This document shows, in pieces, positions 48,821 through 64,000 of a stretch of 64,000 nt of DNA. Origin of the DNA: an uncultured Planctomycetota bacterium. Lineage in GTDB: Bacteria; Planctomycetota; JAJSAM01; JAKLKS01. Numbering within the stretch: position 1 is the stretch's first letter; the number at the start of each line of letters is the position of its first letter. The stretch spans positions 3,014 to 67,013 of the forward strand of contig CAZSIX010000015.1 of NCBI GenBank assembly GCA_964607145.1, in the 5' to 3' direction. The translations under genes and the position numbers were made by a program. The notes under the pieces are model-generated. The model was not told the DNA's origin. It ran no database searches and saw nothing but the letters and a program-made list of their open reading frames with translations.

Positions 48821-49090
48821 GCCCGCGCGACCGCGCCCTCCGGCGCGCACGACTCCCGCCTTCCGCTGCCGCCCCTTCGCCACTGCGCTGCCCCCCCGGT
48901 TCGTCGCGGTCGCCGCCCTCCGTCGCCGCGACGGCGCGGCCCATTGTCCCGGACCGCGCGCTCCCGTGCCCAAGGCCGGCCGAGGGTCGGGGAGGGGGTA
49001 CACGCCCTCGCCCGTACTGTCCGGACCGGCGACACGAAGCGGAAGTCGCGCTCGACGACGGCACGCCGGACCCGGGGACAGCGGGTCGCG

Positions 49091-49191
49091 GGACGGGCGC
49101 GGATCGGGCCGCCGGCGGATAGGATGCCCCCGTCGCGAGGACGCGGCCCTGGGTCCCCGTAGCTCAGTAGGATAGAGCGGCTGGTTCCTAA
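49091..49191 (+). repeat. Left inverted repeat: copy of the tRNA-Arg 5' flank (about 62 bp) plus tRNA nucleotides 1-39 (acceptor stem to anticodon loop), truncated after TTCCTAA
   Basis: Sequence ...gccgccggcggataggatgcccccgtcgcgaggacgcggccctgg-GTCCCCGTAGCTCAGTAGGATAGAGCGGCTGGTTCCTAA is the reverse complement of 51901-52001, with about 2 mismatches over 101 bp. Confidence 0.85.
49153..49191 (+). pseudogene. Truncated tRNA-Arg(CCT) 5' half (39 nt), non-functional
   Basis: Identical to nt 1-39 of the intact tRNA at 51863..51939. The downstream sequence (ggcggggg...) cannot pair to close the anticodon stem. Confidence 0.8.
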
Positions 49192-49449
49192 GGCGGGGGT
49201 CGGGTCGAAAGGCTCCCGCGGGCGCGTTCCAACCTCGCCACGACGCGCCACTTGCGGCGCCCCCCGTAGAGCGGCACTTTCCGTTGTGGACCTCAGGTCC
49301 GCAGGAGGTGTCCACGGTTGCTCGTTGCGCTCTGTCGTTGATGGGGGGAGGACGAGTGACGGTGGAGTTGCTCGAAGGACGCGCGAAGCCTCCTACCGCC
49401 CGTAGACTTCACTCCGATCGCTGTAGGCGGCCTGCACAGGAGGGACCCC

Positions 49450-50247
49450 ATGGTCTCCGAGCTCCTCTGTCTCCAGATTGCGAGATGCCTCCATGGTCGC
49501 ACCTCCGTGTTCAGTCGGACGTTCAACCTGGAGGACAACGCGCCGCCGAAGACCGAGCGGTCGGAGGAGAAGAACTCGCTGACGGAAGCAAGCCTGATCA
49601 GGCCCCTCCTCGCGGAGCACGATCTGGCCGACATCGAAGCAGCCATTCGATGGCTTCAACTGGGAGAGTACCTCGGGCGCACGCAGTGGGGACTCGGGGG
49701 CCCTTGGGTACACGTGCTCACCCCGAAGGGGGTCGAGCTATGTGAGCGGGGAGGATTCCCCGAGCAGGAACGACGGCTCTTCTATCACGAGGAGCCTCAC
49801 CAGGTCTTCCTGGCGCACCAGTTTCGATCCGAGGACGAAGGCCTGGAGAGCGCTCTACGAGCGACGCTCTCAGATGCGGGGTACGTCGTCGTGGATGGCC
49901 AGGTCGATGGCCTCGAGCAGTTCCGCCAAGCGATCTTCGCGAAGATCAAGAGGTCACGGTTCTTCGTTTGTCTGCTGACCCAACGCGCGAGGCTTGAGGC
50001 TGGGGGGGCGGTATCGAGCGTCTGGCTCTACCAGGAGATCGGAGCCGCTGTGGCGTTGAAGAAGTCACCGTTGCTCTTCGTCGAAGACGGGATGGACCCT
50101 CACTTCGCCGGAGAGTTGCAGAAGACGTATGAGTACGTTCCGTTCACTCGAGGATCCGCAAGCCCGCAGTGGTGCAAAGCCGTGTCACGACTCAACACTG
50201 ATCTTGCTCGCGAGGGGATCCCCTTGCCCAAGGGCAAGGCCGAGTAG
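49450..50247 (+). CDS. TIR-domain protein (N-terminal unknown domain of about 110 aa + C-terminal TIR-like domain with conserved glutamate)
   Basis: SD CAGGAGGGACCCC before ATG. TIR-like blocks: QVFLAHQFRSEDEG (betaA), LRATLSDAGYVVVDGQ, IFAKIKRSRFFVCLLTQ, and SSVWLYQEIGAAVA (W..E motif with the putative catalytic E). Lower GC than the flanks. Confidence 0.7.
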   Translation: MVSELLCLQIARCLHGRTSVFSRTFNLEDNAPPKTERSEEKNSLTEASLIRPLLAEHDLADIEAAIRWLQLGEYLGRTQWGLGGPWVHVLTPKGVELCERGGFPEQERRLFYHEEPHQVFLAHQFRSEDEGLESALRATLSDAGYVVVDGQVDGLEQFRQAIFAKIKRSRFFVCLLTQRARLEAGGAVSSVWLYQEIGAAVALKKSPLLFVEDGMDPHFAGELQKTYEYVPFTRGSASPQWCKAVSRLNTDLAREGIPLPKGKAE

Positions 50248-50281: not shown

Positions 50282-51274
50282 CTATTCCTCCTCCGCCCTG
50301 AGTCGCCGCCAGTGCTCCTCGTTGTCCATGAACGGCCTTCCGAGGTCGATGTTCCCAAGGTTCGCTGAGGCGAGTCGATGGAGTACGCGTGCGCCATCTC
50401 GCACGAACAGCCCCAGCCTCTCGGCGAGAACCTGAAAGGTCGGCGTCGACCCGCCCTTCTTCCCAAGAAGCGAGGCGATGTGCTCGCGGTCGGCGGCTCG
50501 GTCGACGTTCTCGATGTTGCTGAACACGGCCTCCATCACGGTGGCGGCACTGACACGATCGCCTCTGCGCCGCACGTTCTTTGGGGCAAACGGCAGGAGA
50601 GTCATGATCTCCTGGTCGAGAGCGTCATCGTCGAGCCAGCCCGGGGGCGTCGGCGTGAACAGGTTGAAGTCCTCTCCGACAACGGGCATCGTCGTTCCGC
50701 GCTGCCACGGGCGGTTGGAGTGGACAACGAACCGGTTGCGATAGAAGCGCATGTTGTAGTGGAGCCAGAGCATGTGGCCCCGACAGTCAGTCCAGAGGTC
50801 GTTGAGGATCTTGGTCCGCCCTGCTTCGAACTCCAGGAGGAGTTCCACGAAGGGGTGCTTCTTCTTCCACGCCGCCGGCTCGATGCACATCGCTTGGAGA
50901 GCGACCTGATCCAGCAGCACACCGCCGAAAACGTAGAGAGACTCGAGGTCCAGCTGCATGAGCCCCGTGAGTGAGTGCTGCTCGCGGAGCGCCTTCTGTA
51001 CCTCCTCAGGATAGGGAGTTCCTCTGGGCCACTCCGCGCGGCGCGTCGCGGAGGTGAGCGCCGCGAGTTCGTTCAATCGCTCTCTGCCGCGGTAGAGGCG
51101 ACCGAGGATCTTCCTGCAGTCGCCAAGCCGTGCGAGCGCGTGGCCGCTGTGATGGAAGAACCCGTACGGTCCGGCCGGGGGCTTCAGACCTTCGAGGACG
51201 GTCTTGCTGAGTCGATGCAGGGCCGCCTCTGCATCGCCGAACAGCTTCTTCATCTCGTCGGGTGGGATGGCCAT
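50282..51274 (-). CDS. Hypothetical protein (330 aa), unknown function, in the TIR cassette
   Basis: SD GGGAGA 5 nt before ATG 51274. Non-repetitive, balanced composition in a lower-GC segment. No recognisable motif. Confidence 0.6.
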   Translation of the reverse strand: MAIPPDEMKKLFGDAEAALHRLSKTVLEGLKPPAGPYGFFHHSGHALARLGDCRKILGRLYRGRERLNELAALTSATRRAEWPRGTPYPEEVQKALREQHSLTGLMQLDLESLYVFGGVLLDQVALQAMCIEPAAWKKKHPFVELLLEFEAGRTKILNDLWTDCRGHMLWLHYNMRFYRNRFVVHSNRPWQRGTTMPVVGEDFNLFTPTPPGWLDDDALDQEIMTLLPFAPKNVRRRGDRVSAATVMEAVFSNIENVDRAADREHIASLLGKKGGSTPTFQVLAERLGLFVRDGARVLHRLASANLGNIDLGRPFMDNEEHWRRLRAEEE

Positions 51275-51295: not shown

Positions 51296-51826
51296 TCACT
51301 GCGTGCGCACGGGTACGACGCCGACTCCACCGCCGCCCTTGCTCTGGAACCGCGCGACCAGAGCCCTTTCCATCTCAGGCTTGGTCTCGACGTCTGCGAA
51401 GAAGGCTCTCGATGCCTGAACGAGTGCGGCGAACAGGTCCTCTGCGTTCAGGAGTGTCTGTCCGGTCCCCTGGTCAACCTTCAGGTGCTGGTGCCCATTG
51501 TGGTGGGTGAGAAGGAACCCGCGCGGTGAGAAGGCATGCACGAGACCGTTTCGGAGATCGTAGAGGGCGCTGGCGTGGCCGTGGTACTCGCTCGGAAAGT
51601 ACTCGCGGACAAATGCCGTGAACCGGTTCTCCACGCCCTTCACCTTCTTCGATCCTTCGTAGCGGTAGCCCGCGAGCGCGTCGACTCCCGTGACCATGCA
51701 GACGAAGGACAGGAACGCGCTGTCGTTGTTGATCATCGGGGCGATCCCGCCGAGGTACCACTGGCCGAAGTACTGGCGGACTGCTGCGGACTCCTCAGTC
51801 ACGGCGTTCCCTCCGATCCTCCCCAT
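51296..51826 (-). CDS. Hypothetical protein (168-176 aa), unknown function, first gene of a two-gene operon in the TIR cassette
   Basis: ATG at 51826 lacks an SD. An internal GTG at 51802 is preceded by GGAGGG at 6 nt spacing and is the more likely start. The stop is 21 nt before the next gene start. Confidence 0.55.
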   Translation of the reverse strand: MGRIGGNAVTEESAAVRQYFGQWYLGGIAPMINNDSAFLSFVCMVTGVDALAGYRYEGSKKVKGVENRFTAFVREYFPSEYHGHASALYDLRNGLVHAFSPRGFLLTHHNGHQHLKVDQGTGQTLLNAEDLFAALVQASRAFFADVETKPEMERALVARFQSKGGGGVGVVPVRTQ

Positions 51827-51862: not shown

Positions 51863-51939
51863 TGGTATCCCCGGCAGGAGTCGAACCTGCGACCTGCTGG
51901 TTAGGAACCAGCCGCTCTATCCTACTGAGCTACGGGGAC
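51863..51939 (-). tRNA. tRNA-Arg (anticodon CCT), 77 nt with encoded CCA
   Basis: Folded by hand: acceptor GTCCCCG/CGGGGAT (G1-U wobble), D arm GCTC-AGTAGGATA-GAGC, anticodon arm GCTGG-TTCCTAA-CCAGC, variable AGGTC, T arm GCAGG-TTCGACT-CCTGC, discriminator A, CCA. Confidence 0.85.
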
Positions 51940-52001
51940 CCAGGGCCGCGTCCTCGCGACGGGGGCATCCTATCCGCCGGCGGCCGGATCCCCGCCCGTC
52001 C
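51901..52001 (-). repeat. Right inverted repeat (5' half of the intact tRNA-Arg plus its upstream flank); partner of 49091..49191
   Basis: Reverse complement of the left repeat. Overlaps the last 30 nt or so of the integrase gene. Confidence 0.85.
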
Positions 52002-53304
52002 CGCGAGGCTCCGCGCCCGGGGCCGGCGCGCCGTAGTCGAGCGCGACGAGGCTCGCGCGCGTCCGGCTGTCCACCATCCTTGCGTAGATCTGCGTCGTCG
52101 AGAGGTCGGCGTGCCCGAGCACGCCCTGCAGGTCGGTCACCGCGGCGCCGCCCTCGAGGAAGTGCACGGCGAACGTGTGCCGGAGCGAGTGGAACGTGAG
52201 CCCCCGCCGTCCGTCGAGCCCGGCCCTCCTGAGCGCGCGCCCGAAGGCCCGCCGCACGGTGACCCACGGCCGCCCGTACCCGGAGAGGAAGATGGGCTCC
52301 GCGTCGGGGATCTCGCGCCTCTCCTTCTCGGCCCGCGCCGCCCGGGTGCGGAGAAGTTCCTCGGCGAGCCGCGGGTGGAGCGGGATCCGCGACGCGTTCC
52401 CGACCTTCGGCCGGAAGAGCGAGAGCGTCCCCGTCCCGAAGTTCACGTCGCCCCAGGTGAGCCGCAGCAGTTCCCCGAGCCGCGCGCCGGTGTAGAGCCC
52501 CGCGGCGACGAGCGGCCGGAGCGCCGGGCCCGTAGCATCGAGGAGCCGGAGCGCTTCCTCCTTCGCGAGCGCGACTCGGGGCTGACGGACCTCGCGGGCC
52601 TTCGTGACGCGGGCGATGGGGTTCTCGCGGAGACGTCCGAGCCGCACGAGGCGGTTGAACGAGGCCCCGAGGACCATCAGCGCCCGGTTCACGGTCGCGT
52701 TGGAGCAGGCCCTCGCGACCTCCCTCACCTCGGGGTGGTCCACACGCCCGGGGCGACGGACGGTCTTCCACGAGCGCTCGATGCGCCACGCGCGGAAGGC
52801 CTCGATGTCGGCCGGCGTCACCGCTTCCGCGGGGAGCCCGGCGAGCGCGCTCCGAGCGATGGTGCTCCGGTGGCCGGCGTAGCCCTCGACAGTGCTCGCA
52901 CAGCGACCCGAGACCCGGCGCGAGTCGATGTACTCGTCGATGGCGTCGAGGACGGAGAACACGCGCGGGGCGCCGTCAGCGGACGGCGCGCCCCCTACGT
53001 TCCCCTCCCGCAGGCCCGCGGCGGAGTGCCCGCCGCCACCGGGCGCGAGGACGGACGGGGGAGGCTCGTATCGCCCCGCGAGGAGCGCCTTGCGCACCTC
53101 GGCCAGGAGGGCCTCCGCCTGGCGCCTGGACGGGACCGCGCGGACGATCTCGCGGACACGGCCGTTGGGCGCGCGGCGACGCTCGGGGTCCGGGTAGCGC
53201 ACGTACCACGAGGACTTCGAGGTGGGTTTGCGGTAGACGCGGCCGAAGAGCCGCCGCCGCCGGCGGCCGCCGGCCCCGTCCGGGGAGTCAGGCGCGGTGT
53301 CCAT
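51970..53304 (-). CDS. Tyrosine-type site-specific recombinase / phage integrase
   Basis: Catalytic region motifs: ARLGELLRLTWGDV, HSLRHTFAVHFL, GHADLSTTQIYAR (R..H..R..Y). ATG at 53304 (MDTAPDSP...FGRVYRKPTSKSSWYVRY); in-frame ATGs at 53346 and 53367 are alternatives. The upstream 214 aa of the ORF is junk. Confidence 0.85.
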   Translation of the reverse strand: MDTAPDSPDGAGGRRRRRLFGRVYRKPTSKSSWYVRYPDPERRRAPNGRVREIVRAVPSRRQAEALLAEVRKALLAGRYEPPPSVLAPGGGGHSAAGLREGNVGGAPSADGAPRVFSVLDAIDEYIDSRRVSGRCASTVEGYAGHRSTIARSALAGLPAEAVTPADIEAFRAWRIERSWKTVRRPGRVDHPEVREVARACSNATVNRALMVLGASFNRLVRLGRLRENPIARVTKAREVRQPRVALAKEEALRLLDATGPALRPLVAAGLYTGARLGELLRLTWGDVNFGTGTLSLFRPKVGNASRIPLHPRLAEELLRTRAARAEKERREIPDAEPIFLSGYGRPWVTVRRAFGRALRRAGLDGRRGLTFHSLRHTFAVHFLEGGAAVTDLQGVLGHADLSTTQIYARMVDSRTRASLVALDYGAPAPGAEPRGTGGDPAAGG

Positions 53305-53366
53305 GACCGCATGAGGGCGAGGGAGGGCGAGCACCTCAAGGGCCATCGCGCCGGCGGCGGCGGCCA

Positions 53367-53660
53367 TCACGGCGCGCGCCGGAGGACCCGGGCCCGGAGG
53401 GCGTCCACGTCCACCGACGGGCGGCCACGGGGGACGGGCGGCGCCGCGTGCCGATAGTGCAGGGCCGCCACGAACGCCTCCAGGCCGTCGCGCCGCACGA
53501 GCAGACGCCCCCGCCGCGACCCGACTGTCGCCACTCGGATGGACGGGATGCTCCCGTCCGCGAGGAGCGAGTACAGCATCGTCCGACCGACGGGGAGGAG
53601 CGCGAGGGCCTGCGCGACAGAGAGGAGATCCCCCGGTCGGAGGGCGGCGCCGGCGTTCAT
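53367..53660 (-). CDS. Excisionase-like / AlpA-type helix-turn-helix DNA-binding protein
   Basis: LLSVAQALALLPVGRTMLYSLLADGSIPSIRVAT...RRGRLLVRRDGLEAFV resembles HTH_17/Xis. ATG at 53660 (cat 53658-53660). Confidence 0.65.
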   Translation of the reverse strand: MNAGAALRPGDLLSVAQALALLPVGRTMLYSLLADGSIPSIRVATVGSRRGRLLVRRDGLEAFVAALHYRHAAPPVPRGRPSVDVDALRARVLRRAP

Positions 53661-54067
53661 CGCCCGGGAACGCTCGCTGCGCAGACGAACCCGTGCGCGA
53701 CGGCCAGCGCCCGCGGCGCGGCACACACGGGGCCGTGGGGGTGGTGTGCCACGACGACCCCGCAGCGGATGCACCGGACGCCGAGGTCGTCGCCCTCGAC
53801 CAGGCCGAACCGCGCGAGGGCCCTCCGGCGGGCACGCGTGCGGGCGGTCGCGGCGGCGCGGATCTCGTCGAAGGGAGTCGTGTCGATGGGCTCGGCGCGG
53901 CCGCCCGGTCGGGGCGACGCGACGGGCAGCGGAAGCCCCGCCTCAACGTGCAGGTACACGACCACGCGGCGCCGCTGCTCGCGCGTCGTCCGTGGCGGCG
54001 CGTAGCCGAGCCGCAGGAGGTCGAGGATCCTCCGTCGCTGCTCGCGTGTCGGGCCCATGGCGCGCAT
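53657..54067 (-). CDS. Hypothetical protein (136 aa) with Cys/His cluster
   Basis: TAATG overlap with the upstream gene (verified). CxxC...HHPHGPVC near the C-terminus. The stop abuts the excisionase start. Confidence 0.45.
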   Translation of the reverse strand: MRAMGPTREQRRRILDLLRLGYAPPRTTREQRRRVVVYLHVEAGLPLPVASPRPGGRAEPIDTTPFDEIRAAATARTRARRRALARFGLVEGDDLGVRCIRCGVVVAHHPHGPVCAAPRALAVAHGFVCAASVPGR

Positions 54068-54759
54068 TACCGCGACCTCGGCCGGCCCTCGCGGTCGTAC
54101 TCGACGAGGACGATGGGGCGCGGGTCGCCCTTCGTGGCCGCGATGGCCGCGGCTACTCGCGAGAGCGCCTCCGCGATCTGCTCGTCCGTCGGCTCGGCGA
54201 CGAGCGCGAGCGGCTCGATGGCCGCCTTCGCGACCTCGATGTCGCGGTGGAGAGCGTCGATGCCCGCCTGGTTGCTCCCCGCGCGGCGAACCCAGGACTC
54301 CGTCCCGTTCCACGAGGTCTCCCGCTCGCTCCGCGTCCGGCGGAGCCCGCCGGCGAGGGACGGCCACGCGCGGTGGACGTCGTCCGCCTCCTCGATGGCG
54401 GCGAGCAGGCGCGGGTCGGCGGAGCGGCGGAGGGCGAATTCGGCTCCGCCCAGTCCGTTCCGGACGGAGGAGTCCTCGTGGAACGCCGCCGAGCGGGCGT
54501 CGGACAGCGCGTCCCGCGCCGCGCGCAGCGCCGCCTGTGCCTCCGCGACGACGACCTCGCGCGCCGCCACGCGCTCGCGAAGCCCGGGCAGCACGTCGCG
54601 GCGGCGCCGGAGGAGCGCCTCGCGCTGCGTGGCGAGGTCCCGCCGCGCCTGCACCGCCGCCTCCTTCGCGGCTGCCGCGGCCTCCGCCTCGGCGAGGAAC
54701 CGCTCGCCCGCCGGCGTGCGGAGGAACGTCTCCAGCCGGTTCGTCCCGTTCGTCGTCAT
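54067..54759 (-). CDS. Hypothetical coiled-coil protein (230 aa)
   Basis: SD GGAGGAG 7 nt before ATG 54759 (verified). The N-terminal 136 aa of the ORF is junk. Confidence 0.55.
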   Translation of the reverse strand: MTTNGTNRLETFLRTPAGERFLAEAEAAAAAKEAAVQARRDLATQREALLRRRRDVLPGLRERVAAREVVVAEAQAALRAARDALSDARSAAFHEDSSVRNGLGGAEFALRRSADPRLLAAIEEADDVHRAWPSLAGGLRRTRSERETSWNGTESWVRRAGSNQAGIDALHRDIEVAKAAIEPLALVAEPTDEQIAEALSRVAAAIAATKGDPRPIVLVEYDREGRPRSR

Positions 54760-54869
54760 CGTGCACTCCTCCAGGGGCCCCGGGTCACTCGCGCCGGTGC
54801 GGGCCCGCGCACCGGCCTCCCTCCGCGCGAGGTTCGCGCGTCGCGGAGGCTCGATCCAGCGGTGCCGCG

Positions 54870-55241
54870 TCACGGGCGCGGCCCCGCGGAGCGCCGGAGT
54901 TCCTCGCCCCTTCGGCGATGGGCCTCGCGCTGCGCGGCGGTGAGGCCCGACCAGGCGGCGTTCAGGTCGCAGGCGCGGACCCAGGCTCGCGCGCGGTCCC
55001 ACCGGCGGCGCGCGTACTCCCGTCGGCGCCGGCAGGGAACGCCGCAGTACCGCCGGGACCGCCGGCCGCGCGCCGATGGCGCCCCGAGCGGCGCCCCGCA
55101 CGCCGCACACGCCGGGACCGCGCTTGTCTCCACCGGCCCCCCCTCCCCTTGTTCCGCCGGCGCGCACGCGGGCTTGCGCGCCCGGTCCCGGGGCCGAGAC
55201 CGGTCACGAACGACCTCCCCCCGGGGCTCCGGCCGCTTCAT
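54870..55241 (-). CDS. Small basic zinc-ribbon protein (CxxC...CxxC); tentative
   Basis: ATGA overlap with the primase-helicase stop. PACAACGAPL...RRYCGVPCRRRREYARRRW. High Arg content makes this uncertain. Confidence 0.35.
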   Translation of the reverse strand: MKRPEPRGEVVRDRSRPRDRARKPACAPAEQGEGGPVETSAVPACAACGAPLGAPSARGRRSRRYCGVPCRRRREYARRRWDRARAWVRACDLNAAWSGLTAAQREAHRRRGEELRRSAGPRP

Positions 55242-57382
55242 CCGCCGCACCCGGTCATGCGGGGCTCCTCGTCCGCCGTCGGCCCGGCCGCCGCCGTCCC
55301 GGCGAACAGGATTTCCTCCCATCCCCTCCGCGAGGGACGGGAGACCCGCCCCTCCGCTCCGCCCGTGTCCTCCCGTCCCTCTTCGAGGGAGGGACGGGAG
55401 GACGGGACTCCCGTCCCGGGGTCCGGGGACGGGACCGGGACGGGCGGGACGAGTTCACCGCTCGCGACCGCGTAGCGGTAGGGGCTCCCGGGCTTGCCGG
55501 TGCCCGTGCGGACGATGGCGCCCCGGGAGAGGAGGGCCTTGAGCGCGCGGGCGGTGCACTCCCGCTTGCCGCCGATGCCGGCGCAGACCTCGTCACGGGT
55601 CGCGGGTTCGCGCGTGGCGCGCAGGTGGTCGAGCGTGCGCTCCGAGGCCGCGGCCGCACGCACCTCCGCGGCCCCGCCCTGGCGGAGGACGCTCGCGCCG
55701 CGTAGTTCGAGAATCTGCTCGTCGAGCGGGGTCTCCCGGAACCGGCTGTACGCCTGGAGCGACCGGAACGTGTCCGACGGCATCTCCTTCGCCCGCCGGA
55801 GTTCCAGGACGACATCCATCGCGCCCGCGATGGCGGACGACCCGCGCGCCCCCTGGCCCTCCTCGGCGTCGGACTTGCGCAGGTGGTGGATGAGGAGCAC
55901 CGCCAGGTCCTCCCCGGCCGCGTCGAGCACGGCCCCGAGGGCGTCCTGCATCGCACCCGCGTCCTTCTCCGCGTCGCGCCCGAAGCGCCCCCACGCGGTG
56001 AGCGTGTCGATGCAGAGGAGCACCGCGCGGATGCGGCGGGCCTCGCGCACGCCCTCGAGGAGGAAGTCGCGGAGGGAGAACTCTGGGTGCATCTCGCGGC
56101 GGGTGAGGAAGCGGGTGTCGCGGAGGCCGAAGCGCGATGCCTTCTCGTGGATGGTGGCCGGCCCCTCCTCCGAGAGGACGACCGCCGGCCCCGCCGCCGT
56201 CGCGAACCCGGCGAACGGCTCGCCGCGCTCGAGGGCGCGGAGGATGGCGAACACGAACGTCGACTTGCCGGCCTTCGGATGGCCCGACAGCAGCGTCACC
56301 GCTCCGCGCGCGAGGAGGCCCTCGACGATCCACGGGACTCCCTCCGCAGCCTCCTCCGCGAGGTCCTCCACGCCGCGCCAGCGGAGAAGGCCCGGGGCGT
56401 CGCGGACGGCGCTCGCGAGCGCATCGCGGCGACCGGCGCGGAGCGCGTCCGCGACGTCCTTCGCCCCGTCGAGGTCGGCGAGGACGGCGTCCCATTCGAG
56501 GAGGCGAACGGCGGCCCCGGCGGCGCGGAGATCGCGTGTGGCGCGCTCCATGCCCTCGGCCCCGGCGCGGTCGTCGTGGAGCGCGAGGACCACGTCGCGG
56601 CCGCGGAGGGCGCGGGACCACTCCGCGTCGAACCGGAGCGCCCCCGGGAGGGCCAAGCGGACGTGGTCCCGGGCGACGTCCGCCGCGACGACGGCGAGGA
56701 GGTCGTGGCCACCCTCGAGCAGCAGGACCGGCGCGTCGGGCTCCCGCGCGAGCCGGACCACCTCGCCGAGGACGCCGCCGCGGGAACCGGGGAGGTCCTC
56801 CTCCTTCGAGTGCCGCCCAGGGCGGACCTTGGCGCCAACGACCCCGCCGGCCGGCGCGAACAGCGGGAGGACGAGGCGCGCGGGTTCGCCGCGCTCGTCG
56901 GGGAGCACGCCGCCGCCGATGGCGGCGAGCGCCTCGGGAGTCCCGTCGTACCGGGCGAGGAGGTCCCGGACATCGGCGTCATCCCGGCGATCCCGAAAGT
57001 AGATGCGCGCGTCCTCGACGACCTGCTGGAACCGGCCGGGCGCCTGGGCCGGTTCCGGCTGCAGCTCCGGGGCGCCGAAGTACCTCCGCTCCAGTTCCGC
57101 GGCGGCGGCGGCCGATCCGTCGAGCCCGCGGACCTCGACGGCCAGCGCGAGGAGCCCTCCCGCACCGAACCCGCAGACCCGGCACTCGGCCGACGCGCCG
57201 TCCTTCGCGACGACGAGGGAGGGGTGGCGGTCGCCGTTGCGGTGGCGCTCGCCCCGGGGGCAGCGAACCGCCGCGCCCGGGCGGGGGGCGTCGCGAAGGC
57301 CGATGAGCTCCCCAAGGACCCTGGGCGCGAGGCCCGCGTCTCGGAGCCGATCCACGACGCTCGGCCAGGCGCGGGGGCTCAC
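55238..57382 (-). CDS. Replication primase-helicase fusion: CHC2-like zinc finger + Toprim primase domain + AAA_25/RepA-like (RecA-fold) ATPase
   Basis: GTG at 57382 with GGAGGAG SD. Zn-finger CPRGERHRNGDRHPSLVV...CRVCGFG. Toprim-like VLLLEGGHDLLAV...VVLALHDDRAGAEG. Walker A LLSGHPKAGKSTF, Walker B AVLLCIDTL, and LAVLLIHHLRKSD. Confidence 0.75.
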   Translation of the reverse strand: MSPRAWPSVVDRLRDAGLAPRVLGELIGLRDAPRPGAAVRCPRGERHRNGDRHPSLVVAKDGASAECRVCGFGAGGLLALAVEVRGLDGSAAAAAELERRYFGAPELQPEPAQAPGRFQQVVEDARIYFRDRRDDADVRDLLARYDGTPEALAAIGGGVLPDERGEPARLVLPLFAPAGGVVGAKVRPGRHSKEEDLPGSRGGVLGEVVRLAREPDAPVLLLEGGHDLLAVVAADVARDHVRLALPGALRFDAEWSRALRGRDVVLALHDDRAGAEGMERATRDLRAAGAAVRLLEWDAVLADLDGAKDVADALRAGRRDALASAVRDAPGLLRWRGVEDLAEEAAEGVPWIVEGLLARGAVTLLSGHPKAGKSTFVFAILRALERGEPFAGFATAAGPAVVLSEEGPATIHEKASRFGLRDTRFLTRREMHPEFSLRDFLLEGVREARRIRAVLLCIDTLTAWGRFGRDAEKDAGAMQDALGAVLDAAGEDLAVLLIHHLRKSDAEEGQGARGSSAIAGAMDVVLELRRAKEMPSDTFRSLQAYSRFRETPLDEQILELRGASVLRQGGAAEVRAAAASERTLDHLRATREPATRDEVCAGIGGKRECTARALKALLSRGAIVRTGTGKPGSPYRYAVASGELVPPVPVPSPDPGTGVPSSRPSLEEGREDTGGAEGRVSRPSRRGWEEILFAGTAAAGPTADEEPRMTGCGG

Positions 57383-57576
57383 GACCTCTCCTCCCCGACG
57401 CCCTCGACCTGCACGGTGGCGACGGGAACTCCCCGCTCGTTCGCCTGGAGCCAGGTGCAGCCGTTCTCGTGGGCCAGCTGCACCCCTCGCACGGCACCGG
57501 CCCGGACCCGCGCCCGAGTGGTCGCCCCGCACCCCGGGCACCGGACCACCGCGACCGACTCGTCCCTGTCCGCCAT
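57379..57576 (-). CDS. Small zinc-ribbon protein (65 aa), first gene of the integrase-primase operon
   Basis: SD GAGGAGG 4 nt before ATG 57576 (verified). RCPGCGATT...NGCTW. The stop abuts the primase GTG. Confidence 0.6.
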   Translation of the reverse strand: MADRDESVAVVRCPGCGATTRARVRAGAVRGVQLAHENGCTWLQANERGVPVATVQVEGVGEERS

Positions 57577-57807
57577 CGAGCCTCCTCAGCCGATCGCCCC
57601 CGCACGGCTCCGTCGAGGCTCTGCCCTCACGGAGGCTCGTGCAACCTGTGCGACGGTCTCGAGCGTCGGTCACCGGGAGCGTCGTTCAACACCCGGAGCT
57701 GATCGGGCGTCCTGCTCCGTCAGACTCCGGCAACCCACCCGGGGCGGCGGCTTGCGTCGGTTACCTTCTGGCGTTCTCTCGTGGGATGGACCATCAGGGC
57801 GAACGAG

Positions 57808-60642
57808 ATGACCAGCGAGGAGGAGACCCGGCAGCGGCTCATCGACCGCCAGTTGCGGCTGGCGGGGTGGGACCTCCGCGACCCGACCCAGGTCGTCGAG
57901 GAGCACGAGATCGACCTGGTCAAGGCGGGCGTCGTTCCGCCGTTCGCGGCAGAGGTCGCCCCCGAGCACTACGGGAAGCAGTACGCCGACTACGCGCTGC
58001 TCTGCCGGGGAAAGGTGCTCGCTGTCCTCGAGGCGAAGAAGACCTCCAAGGACGCGCAGCTCGGGCAGGAGCAGGCGCTGCAGTACGCCGAGAACATCCA
58101 GCGACTGCAGGGGGGACGGGTGCCGTTCGTGATGTACTCGAACGGCCACGACTACTTCCTCTGGGAGTCCGACCGTTATCCTCCTGTCGCGATCCTCGGG
58201 CTGCCGAGCCGGTCGGACCTCGAGTGGATGGACCAGAGGCGGGAGAGCCGGAAGCCACTTTCCGTCGAGCTCATCAACCCGACCATCGCCGGGCGTGACT
58301 ACCAGATCGCCGCAATCCGCGCCGTCCTCGAAGGGCTGGAGGCCCGGCGGCGCAAGTTCCTGCTCGTCATGGCCACCGGGACCGGGAAGACCCGCGTGGC
58401 CATGGGGCTCATCGACGCCCTCCAGCGGGCCCACTGGGCGAAGCGGGTGCTCTTCTTGGTCGATCGCATCGCCCTGCGCGATCAGGCCATCGACGCGTTC
58501 CGCGAGAACCTCCCCGACAGCCCGTACTGGCCGCGGACTGAGGGGAAGTCCGTGGAGGCGGAGTGGCGCGGGGACCGTCGGCTCTACTGCACGACCTACC
58601 AGACGATGCTGAACCTCATCGAGTCCGGGAGGACTCCCGAGACGCGCCTCTCGCCCCACTTCTTCGACCTCGTCATCGCCGACGAGAGCCACCGGTCCAT
58701 CTACAATACGTACAAGGCGGTCCTCGACTGGTTTTCCGGCATCCGTCTCGGTCTCACCGCGACACCGCGCGACCACATCGATCACGACACCTTCGCGATC
58801 TTCGACTGCGAGGCGCAGGACCCGACGTACGCGTTCACCTACGACGAGGCGATCGCCCACGAACCGCCGTACCTCTGCGGCTTCCGCGTCCTGAAGGTCC
58901 GCTCGAAGTTCCAGCTCGAGGGCATCCAGGGAGGGACGCTCCCGGAGCCCGTGCAGAAGAAGCTGATCGCGGAGGGGAAGGACCCCTACGAGATCGACTT
59001 CGAGGGGAGCGAGCTTGAGAGGAAGGTCACGAACTCCGGGACCAACGCGGTCATCGTCCGGGAGTTCATGGAGGAGTGCATCAAGGACCCGACGGGGACC
59101 CTTCCCGGGAAGTCGATCTTCTTCGCCATCTCCAAGGACCACGCCCGGCGAATCGCCGCGATTTTCGACCAGCTCTACCCCGAGTACGCCGGACGGCTGG
59201 CCCGCGTCCTGGTCTCCGAGGATTCTCGCGTCCATGGCAAGGGCGGGCTCCTCGACCAGTTCAAGCACAGCGGCATGCCCCGGGTCGCGCTCTCCGTGGA
59301 CATGCTCGACACCGGCATCGATGTGCCGGAGGTGGTGAACCTCGTCTTCGCCAAGCCGGTGTTCAGCTACACGAAGTTCTGGCAGATGATCGGTCGCGGG
59401 ACCCGCGTCCTCCCCGCGCCGGGGAAGAGGAAGTCGTGGTGCCCGGAGAAGGACGAGTTCCTCATCATCGACTGCTGGGGGAACTTCGACTTCTTCAAGA
59501 TGAAGCCCGAGGGGAAGGAGCCCAAGCCCCAGGTCGCGCTCCCCGTGCGGCTCTTCCACGCGAGGCTCGACCTCCTCGACGCCGGGACCTCGAGTGGGCA
59601 ACCTGACGCCACGGCCGTCGCCGTCGAGGGGCTGCGAGCGGACCTCGCCGCGCTCCCGGAGCAGAACGCCATCGTCACCGGGAGCCGGAGGGACCTCGAC
59701 CCCGTCCTTGCCGACGAGTTCTGGCTCCACCTGACGCCCACGAAGGTCGCCGCGCTGCGCAGTTCGGTGGCCCCGCTCCTCCGGGCGCGGTCGGTGCTCG
59801 AACCGAAGGCGATGCGGTTCGAGATGGAGGCGGTCCAGCTCCTGTGCGCCCGGCTCGGGAGCGCCGGGGTCCTGCTAGAGGGACTGCGCGACAGCCTGGT
59901 CGAGCAGGTCGCCGAACTCCCGCTGTCCGTCAACACGGTGGCGGAGGAGCGGGCTTCGGTTGAGCAGGCGCTTCGGCCCGGCTGGTGGGACGAGACGGCG
60001 ATCCCGGAGGTCTGGTCCACCACCAAGAGGCTCGCGCCTCTCATGCGGTTCCGGCAGGCCCCTCGCGATCCGCTCCTGCGCCTCGACCTGGCCGACCTCA
60101 CGGTGATCAAGGAGGGTCTGGAGTTCGGGCCGGGTCACGAGGGCCGCACGAGCACCGGGTTCCGGGCTCGCGTGGAGGCCTACGTCCGTTCGCTCGTCGC
60201 GACGAACCCGGTGATGGCCCGGATCGCGGCCGGCGAGACCCCGGGGGAGGTCGAGCTGGCGGAAGTGGCGGAGATCCTCCGTCAGGGGGATCCGGTCGTC
60301 ACCGAGGACGCCCTCCGGCGTGCCTACGACCTCCGCGCAGCGGGGCTGACGCAGCTCCTCCGGCACGTGCTGGGGTTGGAGCGCCTGCCCTCCTGGGGGG
60401 AAGCGGTCACCGCCGCCGTCGACGGGTTCATCGCGAGGCACACGACTTTGACCCAGCTCCAGATCCGGTTCCTCCAGACCCTCCGCACGTTCCTTCTACA
60501 GAACCGCCAGTTCGATCGGGGCGCCCTCCTCGAGCCCCCCTTTACCCAGCTCCACCCCAGCGGCGCCCGCGGGGTCTTCTCCGGGCCCGAACTCCAGGAG
60601 GTCGTTGCCCTCGCGGAGGGGCTGGTCGCCGGAAGGGGGTAG
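57808..60642 (+). CDS. HsdR-family helicase/nuclease (type I restriction R subunit-like: HSDR_N nuclease domain + ResIII/DEAD-DEAH helicase)
   Basis: N-terminal EEETRQRLIDRQLRLAGW...YADYALL...VLAVLEAKK (Mrr/HsdR_N-like). Walker A LVMATGTGKT. DEAH-like LVIADESHRS. GLTATP. Helicase C MLDTGIDVPEVVNLVF...QMIGRGTR. An in-frame GTG at 57781 is the alternative start. Confidence 0.75.
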   Translation: MTSEEETRQRLIDRQLRLAGWDLRDPTQVVEEHEIDLVKAGVVPPFAAEVAPEHYGKQYADYALLCRGKVLAVLEAKKTSKDAQLGQEQALQYAENIQRLQGGRVPFVMYSNGHDYFLWESDRYPPVAILGLPSRSDLEWMDQRRESRKPLSVELINPTIAGRDYQIAAIRAVLEGLEARRRKFLLVMATGTGKTRVAMGLIDALQRAHWAKRVLFLVDRIALRDQAIDAFRENLPDSPYWPRTEGKSVEAEWRGDRRLYCTTYQTMLNLIESGRTPETRLSPHFFDLVIADESHRSIYNTYKAVLDWFSGIRLGLTATPRDHIDHDTFAIFDCEAQDPTYAFTYDEAIAHEPPYLCGFRVLKVRSKFQLEGIQGGTLPEPVQKKLIAEGKDPYEIDFEGSELERKVTNSGTNAVIVREFMEECIKDPTGTLPGKSIFFAISKDHARRIAAIFDQLYPEYAGRLARVLVSEDSRVHGKGGLLDQFKHSGMPRVALSVDMLDTGIDVPEVVNLVFAKPVFSYTKFWQMIGRGTRVLPAPGKRKSWCPEKDEFLIIDCWGNFDFFKMKPEGKEPKPQVALPVRLFHARLDLLDAGTSSGQPDATAVAVEGLRADLAALPEQNAIVTGSRRDLDPVLADEFWLHLTPTKVAALRSSVAPLLRARSVLEPKAMRFEMEAVQLLCARLGSAGVLLEGLRDSLVEQVAELPLSVNTVAEERASVEQALRPGWWDETAIPEVWSTTKRLAPLMRFRQAPRDPLLRLDLADLTVIKEGLEFGPGHEGRTSTGFRARVEAYVRSLVATNPVMARIAAGETPGEVELAEVAEILRQGDPVVTEDALRRAYDLRAAGLTQLLRHVLGLERLPSWGEAVTAAVDGFIARHTTLTQLQIRFLQTLRTFLLQNRQFDRGALLEPPFTQLHPSGARGVFSGPELQEVVALAEGLVAGRG

Positions 60643-60729
60643 TCGAGGCCGATAAAGGGGTACTCTCGACAACCAGATTACCCCTTTACAGCTGGCCCTT
60701 GCCCGGATAGGCTACGCCCCCGAACGGCC

Positions 60730-61788
60730 ATGCACTCCCTCACACCCGCCTACCTCGACCGCCTCTCCTTCTCTGCGGAGGAGGCCGCCGCTCTGTCCGC
60801 CCTGATGGAGATGCGCGGGCGCCAGGAGCTCTTCGTCAACCAGAAGCCCGAGGTACTGGAGTCCCTGCGCCAAGTCGCCATCATCGAGTCCACGGAGTCG
60901 AGCAACCGCATCGAGGGCATCTCGGCGCCCCGGGACCGGATCGAGGCCATCGTCCTCCGCCCCACGGAGCATCGGAACCGCTCCGAGCAGGAGATCGCCG
61001 GCTACCGGGACGCGCTCGCCCTCATCCACGAGTCCCACGAGCACATGCCGCTCACGGTGAACGTGCTCCTGCAGATCCACCAGATGCTCTACCGCTACCA
61101 CCCCGGTCCCGGGGGGCGGTTCAAGCTCGCGGACAACCGCATCGACCACTACGACGGGAAGGGGAACCTCGTCCGTGTCCGATTCCGTCCCACTCCGGCA
61201 TTCGAGACCCCGGCCGCCATGGATGCGCTCGTCGCGGGGTATCAGGATGCGAACGGCGCCCGGGCGCTGCACCCGCTGGTCGCGGTCCCCCTCACGATCC
61301 TGGACCTGCTCTGCATCCACCCGTTCACGGACGGGAACGGCCGCGTCGCGCGTCTGGCGACGCTCCTGCTCCTCTACCACCACGGGTTCGCGCTCGGGCG
61401 CTACATCAGCCTCGAGCGCATCGTGGAGGAATCGAAAGAGGGATACTACGAGACGCTCGAGGCCAGTTCGAAGGGCTGGCACGAGGGGAAGCACGACGTC
61501 CACCCGTGGCTGAACTACTTCTGGGGCGCGCTGACGCGGGCGGGCCGCGAGTTCGAGGAGCGGGTGGGAAAGGTCGCCGACGCCCCGGGGACCAAGAGCG
61601 AGATGATCCGCGCCGCGGTGATGCGTAGGATCGGCCCGTTCTCCAGTGCGGCGATCGAGAAGGACTGCCCCGGCGTGAGCCACGAGCTTGTTAGGCGCGT
61701 TCTGCGTTCCATGAGAGACGAAGGGATCATCGCGGTTCAAGGACGTGGGCGCGGGGCCAAGTGGCTGCGGTCTGCAGAATCGAGGTGA
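60730..61788 (+). CDS. Fic family protein (Fic/DOC AMPylation-type motif) with C-terminal winged-helix
   Basis: Canonical Fic motif HPFTDGNGRVARL. ATG at 60730. Confidence 0.85.
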   Translation: MHSLTPAYLDRLSFSAEEAAALSALMEMRGRQELFVNQKPEVLESLRQVAIIESTESSNRIEGISAPRDRIEAIVLRPTEHRNRSEQEIAGYRDALALIHESHEHMPLTVNVLLQIHQMLYRYHPGPGGRFKLADNRIDHYDGKGNLVRVRFRPTPAFETPAAMDALVAGYQDANGARALHPLVAVPLTILDLLCIHPFTDGNGRVARLATLLLLYHHGFALGRYISLERIVEESKEGYYETLEASSKGWHEGKHDVHPWLNYFWGALTRAGREFEERVGKVADAPGTKSEMIRAAVMRRIGPFSSAAIEKDCPGVSHELVRRVLRSMRDEGIIAVQGRGRGAKWLRSAESR

Positions 61789-61792
61789 CACG

Positions 61793-63292
61793 ATGCTCAC
61801 AAGACTAGTGGTCAACGGGTTCAAGAACCTGGACGGCATCGATGTCAGGCTCGGTCCGTTCACATGCGTCGCGGGGCCTAACGGCGTCGGCAAGTCGAAC
61901 CTCTTCGACGCCATTGAGTTCCTGGGGGCCCTGGCCGAGCACCCGTTGATGGATGCTGCGCTTGCCGTTCGAGGCGGCGAGGCGCGCCGCGGTGACGTGA
62001 GGAGCCTTTTCAGGCGGACGGGGGACAAGACCGCAGAGTCGATGAAATTCCTCGCGGAGATGATCATCCCCTACACGGGTGTCGATACGCTCGGTCAACC
62101 CGCCAAGGCCTCCATGACGTTCCTTCGGTACGAGTTGGAGCTGGGGTATCGCGATGATCCGTCGGTGCGAGCGATGGGAAAGCTCGAGGTGCGTCGCGAG
62201 ACGATGGTCCACATCAATCGCTCCACCGCCAAGTCCCAACTCCGCTTCCCGCACAAGAAGCCTTGGCGGGACTCCGTAGTGAGGGGGCGCCGGAGCAGCG
62301 ACTACATCTCAACCGAGGACAAGAGCGGCGAGGCGGTCATCTCCCTGCATGCAGACACAAGCGGGGCGAAGGGTGGCGGAAAGCCACGGCGCGCATTGGC
62401 ATCCAGTCTGCCCCGCACGATGCTCTCCAGCGTGACCAACGCGGCCGAGCATCGGACCCTGGTGCTGGCGCGTCAGGAGATGGCTTCGTGGACCCACCTT
62501 CAGCTGGAGCCTTCTGCGCTTAGGGCTCCGGACCCGTTCACCGCAACCCGATCCATTGCCTCGAACGGTGCCCACCTGCCTGCCACGCTCTATGACTTGT
62601 CCCTGCGGGCGGAACGGGGCAAGAAGGGAGGAGCGGAGGACCTGTACGCGCGCGTGTCCAATCGCCTATCGGAACTCGTCGAGAGTGTGCGAGCCCTGAC
62701 GGTGGACGTTGACGAGAAGCGCGAACTCCTCAGCATCGTCCTCACTGACCGCGAAGGCACCCCGCACCTTGCAGGTGCGCTCTCGGATGGCACGTTGCGG
62801 TTCTTGGCGTTGACGGTCATGGAGGAGGATCCAAGGAGCCGGCCTCTCCTGTGTCTCGAGGAACCTGAAAACGGGATGCATCCTTCCCGCATTCCAGCGG
62901 TCATCGAGTTGTTGGACGCTCTCGTGGTCGACGCTGACAGCCCAGTCAACGAGGAGAATCCCCTACGGCAAGTCATTGTCAATACGCACTCGCCCTCCGT
63001 GGTGGGGGGCGTCGTGGACGGCGATCTGCTGCTTGCGCGCGAGACGCGGGTCGCGGTCGAGGGCAAAGAGGAGTCCCGTCTCGCCCTGAGCCCCCTGTCG
63101 GGGACCTGGCGCCTCAAGGACAGCGCTGACGTGTCCCCGGTGACCCGCGGTGAACTGCTCGCCTACCTCAATCCGTTCTACGCCGACGAGGAGGAGAGTG
63201 AGCAGCCGAAGAACCGCCGGCGAGTGCGTGTCAAGGAACGTCCTGACCTCGGTCCGTTCCTGCCATTCCGGGAGCCGGAGACAACCGCATGA
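61793..63292 (+). CDS. ABC/OLD-family AAA ATPase (AAA_15/AAA_21-like, RecF/SMC-like N-terminal Walker A)
   Basis: SD GAGGTGA before ATG 61793. Walker A CVAGPNGVGKSNLFDAIEFL. Distal Walker B / D-loop LLCLEEPENGMHP. Confidence 0.75.
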   Translation: MLTRLVVNGFKNLDGIDVRLGPFTCVAGPNGVGKSNLFDAIEFLGALAEHPLMDAALAVRGGEARRGDVRSLFRRTGDKTAESMKFLAEMIIPYTGVDTLGQPAKASMTFLRYELELGYRDDPSVRAMGKLEVRRETMVHINRSTAKSQLRFPHKKPWRDSVVRGRRSSDYISTEDKSGEAVISLHADTSGAKGGGKPRRALASSLPRTMLSSVTNAAEHRTLVLARQEMASWTHLQLEPSALRAPDPFTATRSIASNGAHLPATLYDLSLRAERGKKGGAEDLYARVSNRLSELVESVRALTVDVDEKRELLSIVLTDREGTPHLAGALSDGTLRFLALTVMEEDPRSRPLLCLEEPENGMHPSRIPAVIELLDALVVDADSPVNEENPLRQVIVNTHSPSVVGGVVDGDLLLARETRVAVEGKEESRLALSPLSGTWRLKDSADVSPVTRGELLAYLNPFYADEEESEQPKNRRRVRVKERPDLGPFLPFREPETTA

Positions 63293-63927
63293 TCCAGGCG
63301 GCGGTGGTGACCGATGGGACCTCAGACCGCGTCTTGATTCCGGTACTCCGGTGGACGCTCGGCGTCGTGACTCCTGCTCCGATCGATGTGCGGTGGGCGG
63401 ACTTGCGGGGGCTTCGGTCCCCGCCGCGAGGCCTGGAGGAACGCATCTCACGCGCGGTCGAGCTCTATCCCTGCCAACTCCTCTTCGTCCATCGCGACGC
63501 TGAGGCCCAGCCACCGCGCTGGAGAGAAGCTGAGATCCAGCGAGCCAATCAGACTCAGGTGCCTCACGTCTGCGTAGTGCCAGTCCGGATGCAGGAGACC
63601 TGGCTCCTCCACAACGAGGCGGCCCTCCGTAGGGCCGCAGGCTGTCCCTCGGGAACCGGGCCACTGGACCTTCCGGCGCTCCGGGATGTCGAGTCGGTGC
63701 CTGATCCGCGAGCGGTCCTCCACACCGCACTGACACTCGCGAGCGAGTTGAGAGGCCGAAAGCTCCGGAAGTTCCGCGCGAATGTCGCTGCTCACCGCTT
63801 GGCCGAGCTTGTCGAGGATTGGTCTCCGCTTCGCGCTCTCCCGGCATTCCAGCGGTTGGAGGAACTCGCACGCGAGGCACTCCAGGCTCTTGGCGTTCCC
63901 CTCTATCTACCACCAGGAGCGAACTGA
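63289..63927 (+). CDS. DUF4276-like (RloB/Toprim-like) small protein, partner of the AAA ATPase
   Basis: ATGA overlap with the ATPase stop. 212 aa, matching DUF4276 size. N-terminal acidic Toprim-like motif AAVVTDGTSDRVLIPVL, then FVHRDAEAQ. Confidence 0.5.
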   Translation: MIQAAVVTDGTSDRVLIPVLRWTLGVVTPAPIDVRWADLRGLRSPPRGLEERISRAVELYPCQLLFVHRDAEAQPPRWREAEIQRANQTQVPHVCVVPVRMQETWLLHNEAALRRAAGCPSGTGPLDLPALRDVESVPDPRAVLHTALTLASELRGRKLRKFRANVAAHRLAELVEDWSPLRALPAFQRLEELAREALQALGVPLYLPPGAN

Positions 63928-64000
63928 CCAGTGCTTACACCCGCCATGCGCAGCCGCATCGACGCCCTCTGGGACCGCTTCTGGTCCGGGGGCATCGCGA

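Follow-up and report, generated by a model that had tools for sequence, protein, structure and literature searches.

A probable composite type I restriction-modification operon with Fic and HEC-01-type modules nested between hsdR and hsdM

The DNA analysed here, a window of 64,000 nt from an uncultured Planctomycetota bacterium, ends in what appears to be a horizontally acquired type I restriction-modification (RM) operon with two further defence-type modules lodged between its core genes. In the list of open reading frames (ORFs) and their translations, four intact, tightly packed ORFs, all on the + strand, fill positions 57808-63927, and a fifth begins at the very edge. The original prediction, made from the letters of this DNA, had described four co-directional genes with a GC content below that of the core. 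Both points hold: the coordinates were confirmed, and the four genes have a GC content of 0.64-0.68 compared with 0.764 for positions 1-47000 of the window. The predicted genes are listed with the evidence used for each (aa, amino acids); related loci are cited by our locus numbers.

57808-60642, + strand: hsdR, type I restriction subunit, 944 aa from the ATG (Pfam, PADLOC, PDB, motifs)
60730-61788, + strand: fic, class II Fic protein of AMP-transferase type, 352 aa (Pfam, PADLOC, PDB, motifs)
61793-63292, + strand: gene 3, HEC-01A-type ABC ATPase, 499 aa from the ATG (PADLOC, Pfam, motifs)
63289-63927, + strand: gene 4, HEC-01B-type small partner, 212 aa (PADLOC profile)
63931-64000, + strand: 5' end of hsdM, first 23 codons, running off the window (similarity to the HsdM of locus L022)

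The packing of hsdR, fic, gene 3, gene 4 and hsdM is operon-like. The successive spacers measure 87, 4, -4 and 3 nt, the negative value being the ATGA at 63289-63292 by which genes 3 and 4 overlap, as had been predicted. Upstream of the ATG of gene 1 at 57808 lies an in-frame GTG at 57781, and homologues align with the ATG-initiated protein from its residue 1; the ORF of gene 3 opens at 61745 and its ATG is at 61793. A scan found no terminator-like site between the genes, in DNA of 68-76% GC in which sigma-70 and terminator scans are uninformative. Composition is not uniform along the operon. The GC content of third codon positions (GC3) is 0.92 in hsdR and 0.90 in fic, versus 0.78 in gene 3 and 0.71 in gene 4, and this drop within one operon marks a compositional seam at the boundaries of the gene 3-gene 4 cassette (61793-63927 against 57808-61788). 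The adjoining integrase-primase block, described below, has a GC content of 76%, like positions 1-47000. The 87-nt spacer between hsdR and fic also holds a hairpin with a 9-bp stem (60653-60690, AAAGGGGTA...TACCCCTTT), which is followed by no T-tract and whose folding energy is not significantly better than that of shuffled sequence (z = -1.6).

In type I systems an HsdM2S assembly methylates a bipartite site, and complexes loaded with HsdR translocate on and cleave unmodified DNA. Gene 1 is, to judge by its domains and motifs, a type I HsdR. The HsdR_N nuclease and superfamily 2 (SF2) helicase predicted for it are borne out by Pfam (ResIII 4e-37, HSDR_N 2e-10, plus Helicase_C), which adds an EcoEI_R_C tail (7e-18, about 60160-60609), and by a nearly full-length PADLOC match to REase_I (PDLC03047, 8.5e-140, aa 12-935); the nearest solved structure is PDB 3H1T, the R subunit of a Vibrio type I enzyme (3e-29). 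At the N-terminus, the PD-(D/E)xK nuclease (window 57982-58041) keeps D61...E75-A-K77 intact within YADYAL (aa 59-64) and EAKK (aa 75-78). The SF2 motifs I, II, III and VI are likewise all intact, as GTGKT (aa 191-195, 58378-58392), DESH (aa 292-295, 58681-58692), TATP (aa 317-320, 58756-58767) and QMIGRGTR (59383-59406, fitting QxxGRGxR). The clade is large: more than 7600 homologues at E<=1e-50 share the same domains. Could gene 1 instead be an orphan SF2 helicase-nuclease outside restriction, such as a type IV, Pbe-like or repair helicase? Weaker PADLOC matches to mREase_IV (7e-20) and PbeA (8e-19) lean that way, as do the NCBIfam type I cut-offs that the protein fails to reach (scores below), but these matches are about 120 orders of magnitude worse than the full-length one to REase_I, EcoEI_R_C is present, hsdM starts directly after gene 4, and orthologues of gene 1 sit in complete hsdR...hsdM-hsdS operons. 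We find an orphan helicase-nuclease barely credible.

The RM locus continues past gene 4, to judge by the partial ORF at the edge, which the original prediction had suggested might extend it. This ORF starts at a GTG at 63931, three nt past the stop of gene 4, with an in-frame ATG at 63946 and an AGGAG 11 nt upstream. It reads VLTPAMRSRIDALWDRFWSGGIA, and the HsdM of the orthologous operon in L022, a 516-aa protein with HsdM_N and N6_Mtase domains, begins MLTPAMRSKIDALWDRFWSGGIANPL; 22 of the 23 residues are identical, and the similarity to the HsdM of L021 is equally high. The edge ORF thus reads as the N-terminus of HsdM. The stretch from gene 1 to gene 4 contains neither hsdM nor hsdS, as had been predicted. 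In orthologous operons hsdS (Methylase_S) follows directly after hsdM, and the order here would be hsdR-fic-hec01A-hec01B-hsdM, then presumably hsdS beyond the window. The system most resembles the type I RM systems related to EcoAI and EcoEI (IB-like): gene 1 has the same combination of nuclease, SF2 motor and EcoEI_R_C tail, an HsdM N-terminus is visible in the window, and orthologous loci supply both HsdM and HsdS. It differs from them in that hsdR comes first and accessory genes stand between hsdR and hsdM.

The first of these accessory genes, gene 2, is a class II Fic protein of AMP-transferase type as far as its motifs tell. Besides a Pfam Fic match (7e-15), it carries the canonical Fic motif that had been predicted, HPFTDGNGRVARL (aa 197-209, 61318-61356), which fits HxFx(D/E)GNGRxxR. 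Near the N-terminus, SNRIEG (aa 58-63, 60901-60918) fits the inhibitory motif (S/T)xxxE(G/N), and an N-terminal inhibitory helix is what defines class II (PMC12249575). The closest solved relative is PDB 8UQU, a 'Fido domain-containing protein' that matches over the full length (2e-130). A literature search found no paper mentioning 8UQU; apparently, this RM-embedded Fic clade has structure data without a published function. The best-characterised point of comparison is SoFic, a class 2 Fic protein of abortive-infection defence (PMC12249575). Gene 2 shares with it both the active-site and the inhibitory motif, a similar size and a full-length PADLOC profile match (1e-36, aa 17-344, for a profile of 361 positions). 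It is nevertheless distant, at 1e-5 to 3EQX/3ZCN by phmmer and 52.7 bits against the NCBIfam SoFic model NF046030, whose cut-off of 550 is not reached, and belongs to a different clade. A further difference from SoFic is that no small AS1-like gene follows gene 2, because hec01A starts 4 nt past the fic stop.

Fic is in fact a recurrent resident of this RM lineage and not random cargo. The three nearest HsdR relatives with readable context (70-71% identity) are arranged as hsdR-fic-[0 or 1 extra gene]-hsdM-hsdS, and L021, L022 and L023 each have a Fic orthologue at this place in the operon. We then looked outward from Fic, in 80 metagenomic loci with relatives at 54-70% identity; like all our context samples, these are metagenome contigs picked by similarity and are not an unbiased census. 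Of the 65 loci with sufficient DNA downstream, 25 have an HsdM of the same family immediately after Fic; HsdR stands immediately before it in 20 of 59, and both flank it in 17 of 48 informative loci. The gap from the fic stop to the hsdM start is 14 nt or less in 19 of 26 cases, and a spacer of 11 nt recurs in hsdR-fic-hsdM-hsdS operons across many lineages. Overall, about 35-40% of the sampled loci hold this Fic clade in hsdR-fic-hsdM-hsdS operons. One paper mentions, as an aside, a Fic/DOC coding sequence that lies between core type I genes (PMC9881135); the main text of PMC12455610 makes no mention of Fic.

Genes 3 and 4, the second module, read as a HEC-01-type cassette on their profile matches. 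HEC-01 is Hma-embedded candidate 01, made of an ABC ATPase together with a TOPRIM protein (Payne et al. 2024, bioRxiv 10.1101/2024.01.29.577857), and the profiles that we used for it come from PADLOC-DB v2. Gene 3 matches HEC-01A (PDLC04184) at 1e-98, with aa 17-426 aligned to positions 1-397 of 464. Of the ATPase families proposed as a check, both are found in it, AAA_21 at 2e-26 and AAA_15 too, together with SMC_N. The predicted Walker A motif GPNGVGKSN is there (aa 28-36, 61874-61900), and after it come the signature LSDGT (62780-62794), the Walker B-like LEEPE (62855-62869) and the H-loop NTHSP (62981-62995). Walker A, LSDGT, the CLEEPENG(I/M)HP Walker B region and NTHSP are kept in 13 homologues of other phyla.

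Gene 4, for which 1923 homologues are detectable, matches HEC-01B (PDLC04210) at 5e-26, with aa 3-203 aligned to positions 5-214 of 217. It had been predicted to be DUF4276-like. Gene 4 itself has no Pfam match even at E<=1, DUF4276 (PF14103) included, and the suggested searches for DUF4435 and Toprim domains also came back empty. Among its relatives, 23 of 47 match PF14103 weakly (best 3e-05), and this keeps the prediction alive in a modified form, in which gene 4 would be a divergent DUF4276-like branch. DUF4276/Mad4 has been placed in the Toprim superfamily (PMC12065111). The AlphaFold2 model of gene 4 (predicted local distance difference test score, pLDDT, 93.7) has a beta-alpha-beta-alpha-beta-alpha-beta core, while its C-terminal half consists of helices. 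Its acidic clusters TDGTSD (63310-63327), HRDAE (63490-63504) and MQETW (63589-63603) are conserved, and the invariant or near-invariant acids D9 and D13 follow beta1, D70-A-E72 follow beta3 and E103 follows beta4. The predicted core and this placement of acidic residues would be compatible with TOPRIM. Foldseek searches of the model against PDB and BFVD gave non-significant matches alone (EngA, ExoVII, topoisomerases, RuvC), and a profile search against PDB sequences gave none.

PADLOC, one of the checks proposed for the island, thus assigns every complete gene in it (REase_I 8.5e-140, SoFic 1e-36, HEC-01A 1e-98, HEC-01B 5e-26), and the Pfam and PADLOC family assignments are well above chance level. 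The original prediction had also named as decisive the presence of hsdM or hsdS downstream, the nature of the helicase and the family of gene 4. An hsdM start lies at the edge, gene 1 reads as HsdR and gene 4 as HEC-01B type; none of the three goes against the prediction.

The original prediction had gone further and called genes 3 and 4 a Rlo/PARIS/OLD-like module. The architectural class is right, an ABC ATPase with a small, putatively Toprim-class partner, and the HEC-01 match agrees with it; membership in PARIS, OLD or RloAB did not hold up. Gene 3 does have secondary matches across these families (AriA 3e-26, Old 3e-11, GajA 1e-10, PADLOC mad3 4e-22, NCBIfam MAD3 2e-37), so we compared the pair with each system in turn. 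In PARIS, AriA is an ABC ATPase and AriB a DUF4435 TOPRIM nuclease. The architectural logic is the same and the ATPases are weakly similar, but gene 4 has no AriB/DUF4435 match in Pfam or PADLOC, it would rather be DUF4276-like, and the AriA match of gene 3 is far below that to HEC-01A. Against Old and GajA, gene 3 matches the N- and C-terminal ATPase segments alone; the nuclease-like part is here a separate gene, and no fused Toprim, GajB helicase or UvrD-like gene is present. RloA and RloB likewise pair an AAA_21-type ATPase with a small partner of the Toprim superfamily, but gene 4 matches neither RloB (PF13707) nor any other Pfam family, and no PrrC-like anticodon nuclease domain occurs here.

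MADS (Mad3/Mad4) calls for more caution, on account of the profiles. The NCBIfam MAD3 score of gene 3 is 129.5 bits against a cut-off of 420, gene 4 has no mad4 match, and no other mad genes occur in 47-64 kb. Among the neighbours of related pairs, we did meet PADLOC matches labelled 'mad3' and 'mad8', which turned out to be UvrA, and a MADS context was rejected for them too. The mad3 profile (PDLC04135) matches UvrA-like proteins at 1e-104 and the mad8 profile (PDLC04140) at 3e-37 (L019 2406-5336 and L020 46-1905). The mad3 profile is therefore unspecific, and mad3 or mad8 matches alone should not be read as MADS. A literature search on Mad3/Mad4 returned nothing usable. With HEC-01A by far the best match of gene 3, and gene 4 matching HEC-01B profiles alone and no Toprim model, a PARIS, OLD/Gabija, RloA/RloB or MADS module is highly improbable at this site.

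The HEC-01-type cassette resembles HEC-01 as described in being a two-gene set of ABC ATPase and small, putatively TOPRIM-class protein with a start/stop overlap, and in being nested within another defence system. The host system is different, a type I RM operon (at the fic/hsdM junction) and not Hma. The subfamily is also usually free-standing, as it is in 20 of the 21 other loci with readable context. In the remaining locus (L001) the pair lies near a type I RM system, where it is divergent from hsdM-hsdS and not embedded. In 17 of 18 other loci a gene 3 homologue and a gene 4 homologue stand side by side and point the same way, so we regard the cassette as a mobile two-gene unit. Such pairs were seen with few defence genes around them; one case is a CBASS-type oligonucleotide cyclase in a metagenome-assembled genome of Latescibacterota (L012 10480-11724, PADLOC Cyclase 1.8e-111), some 3.4 kb downstream of the pair.

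At our locus, this 2.1-kb cassette fills the junction between fic and hsdM. Elsewhere the same junction holds other things: a 347-aa protein without family assignment, whose sole family match is a marginal one to HEC-02B (E 0.003; L021 13962-15005); a SEC-C-motif protein (L026 3481-4308); a four-helix-bundle protein resembling 23S_rRNA_IVP/bAvd (L053 4704-5105, and L055); and a 223-aa protein without family assignment (L088 815-1486). In about 36 related hsdR-fic-hsdM loci we found no relative of gene 3 or gene 4, and none of the related loci that we sampled has the combination hsdR-fic-HEC-01-hsdM. This variety of cargo, the absence of the cassette from related loci and the GC3 seam together indicate that the fic/hsdM junction is a variable cargo slot into which HEC-01 was dropped here. 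The lower GC3, and again the empty count in those roughly 36 loci, make the cassette a separate and probably later insertion. We also asked whether it had left a target-site duplication, as gene 3 and hsdM both begin MLT; this was rejected, since every gene 3 homologue starts MLTR. By eye, the C-terminus of the 347-aa protein in L021 resembles a D..E.K nuclease motif.

We consider it very probable that an integrative element, described below, carries a composite type I RM operon with two nested defence modules, one of Fic and one of HEC-01 type. The prediction of restriction-linked accessory genes in a type I RM locus applies to both modules, with one correction: Fic is the recurrent resident and the ATPase pair the unusual insert. 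In such an operon the RM genes would be the scaffold, with HsdM and HsdS methylating a bipartite site and HsdR translocating on and cutting unmethylated DNA. By analogy with SoFic, Fic would be silenced by the inhibitory helix at its N-terminus and, once activated, would AMPylate cellular targets and abort infection. For the HEC-01 pair, PARIS and OLD logic and the description of HEC-01 suggest that the ATPase may be a sensor or scaffold controlling a small TOPRIM-like nuclease, which would be released or activated on a trigger. We infer in this way the enzymatic activities, a function against phages and whatever cross-talk the modules may have.

Several observations weigh against this composite reading. 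Gene 1 scores 224 bits against the NCBIfam model for EcoAI/FtnUII R subunits (NF046051, cut-off 550) and 232 bits against PRK11448 (cut-off 729); these scores below the equivalog cut-offs assign it to a separate, though related, clade of proteins of about 940 aa. The window holds 23 codons of hsdM and hsdS would fall beyond position 64000, which leaves the RM system unproven as to completeness. In the E. coli assays first run on it, HEC-01 was not protective (bioRxiv 10.1101/2024.01.29.577857), although a later study reports that another representative, from a cold seep, protected E. coli B from one or more of T4, T5 and T7 (PMC12881386). Outside RM operons the Fic relatives stand alone, in varied surroundings that are mostly housekeeping and include plasmids, and the neighbours of the cassette elsewhere are also mostly housekeeping genes. 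Since both modules are mostly solo elsewhere, co-location here need not mean functional coupling.

That last point leads to another account, a plain defence island in which a type I RM system, a SoFic-like single gene and a HEC-01 pair are merely adjacent and nesting just results from insertion at an intergenic site that tolerates it, with no coupling and no shared regulation. The free-standing pairs in 20 of 21 other loci fit it, and so do the roughly 60% of Fic relatives outside RM loci, with their solo plasmid copies, and a cassette GC3 unlike that of the scaffold. What speaks against mere adjacency is that the short spacers (4, -4 and 3 nt) and the lack of terminators put the cassette inside the hsdR-hsdM transcription unit. 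Moreover, the recurrence of hsdR-fic-hsdM-hsdS with its 11-nt fic-hsdM spacer in many lineages speaks for the arrangement being under selection, at least where Fic is concerned. We hold the plain island to be possible, if somewhat doubtful.

A more ambitious alternative is that Fic and/or the HEC-01 pair guard the type I enzyme, monitoring it and firing when a phage anti-restriction protein disables it. Embedding in an RM operon matches the precedent of PrrC with EcoprrI, and PrrC occurs almost only inside type I RM systems (bioRxiv 10.1101/2024.01.29.577857). The synteny of hsdR-fic-hsdM is conserved, and PARIS, architecturally related as an ABC ATPase with a TOPRIM nuclease, has its name spelled out in a passage of PMC11464382 as 'phage antirestriction induced system'. 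Given the RM context, anti-restriction sensing by the gene 3-gene 4 pair is plausible by analogy. On the other hand, in most genomes this Fic clade and this type of ATPase pair function, or at any rate persist, with no RM neighbour, and gene 4 is not an AriB/DUF4435 protein. A latent-toxin relation to the RM enzyme would be hypothetical for the modules here. It is unlikely that Fic and the inserted HEC-01 pair are wired physically or functionally to the type I enzyme as anti-restriction guards. Were it so, the locus would be a three-layer 'restrict, then abort' operon, with arrest by AMPylation and nucleic-acid cleavage, and the principles of PrrC-EcoprrI and PARIS would generalise to the very widespread hsdR-fic-hsdM-hsdS family.

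For the composite operon that we favour, current concepts need no change. Accessory defence genes inserted between core hsd genes are already known from PrrC, from the rlo genes of Campylobacter and from the "guilt-by-embedding" survey (bioRxiv 10.1101/2024.01.29.577857), and the locus is a further example of this described pattern of defence genes embedded in RM loci. It offers a compact natural case of the nesting principle already used to discover systems ("guilt by embedding"), and it belongs to a large, phylogenetically broad type I RM family in which Fic is fixed between hsdR and hsdM and the fic/hsdM slot takes variable cargo. The experimental support for HEC-01 being ambiguous, the locus also provides a native context for it, beside a restriction enzyme that HEC-01 might back up.

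Upstream of the operon, the following features lie on the opposite strand.

51863-51939, - strand: tRNA-Arg(CCT), adjoining the integrase gene (ARAGORN)
51970-53364, - strand: tyrosine integrase, whose ORF can extend to 53946 (Pfam Phage_integrase 1.5e-23)
53367-53774, - strand: small ORF with, by eye, the look of an excisionase/AlpA-type helix-turn-helix protein
54067-55167, - strand: ORF without assigned function
55238-57673, - strand: primase/helicase-like replication protein, 811 aa (Pfam AAA_25 7e-21; Toprim_2 0.0048, weak and below cut-off)

The primase/helicase-like gene is divergent from hsdR, from which it is separated by 134 nt. Since the tRNA-Arg, the integrase and this primase-helicase-type gene lie upstream, the operon is the cargo of a tRNA-Arg-linked integrative element whose right end is beyond the window. 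The tRNA-Arg(CCT) is likely the attachment region of the element.

The same tRNA takes part in a 158-nt inverted repeat with 90% complementarity, between 49045-49202 (+) and 51890-52047 (-). Its left arm copies tRNA-Arg(CCT) in truncated form, with 108 nt of upstream region and the 5' half of the gene; the copy ends exactly in the anticodon loop and has the inverse orientation of the intact tRNA (51863-51939). The integrase ORF reaches into the repeated upstream region with its last 26 codons. A second copy of the tRNA-Arg 3' half was not found in the 64-kb window. An inverted, and not direct, duplication of a tRNA is not what simple integration leaves. The arms bracket 2.7 kb of DNA of 63.5% GC, with low-GC ORFs at 49450-50247 (+), 50282-51274 (-) and 51296-51826 (-) between the two tRNA copies. 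The last two have no Pfam or PADLOC family match, and the first has a sub-threshold match to TIR_2 (22.8 bits against a cut-off of 28); the three may form a second, small islet of defence type.

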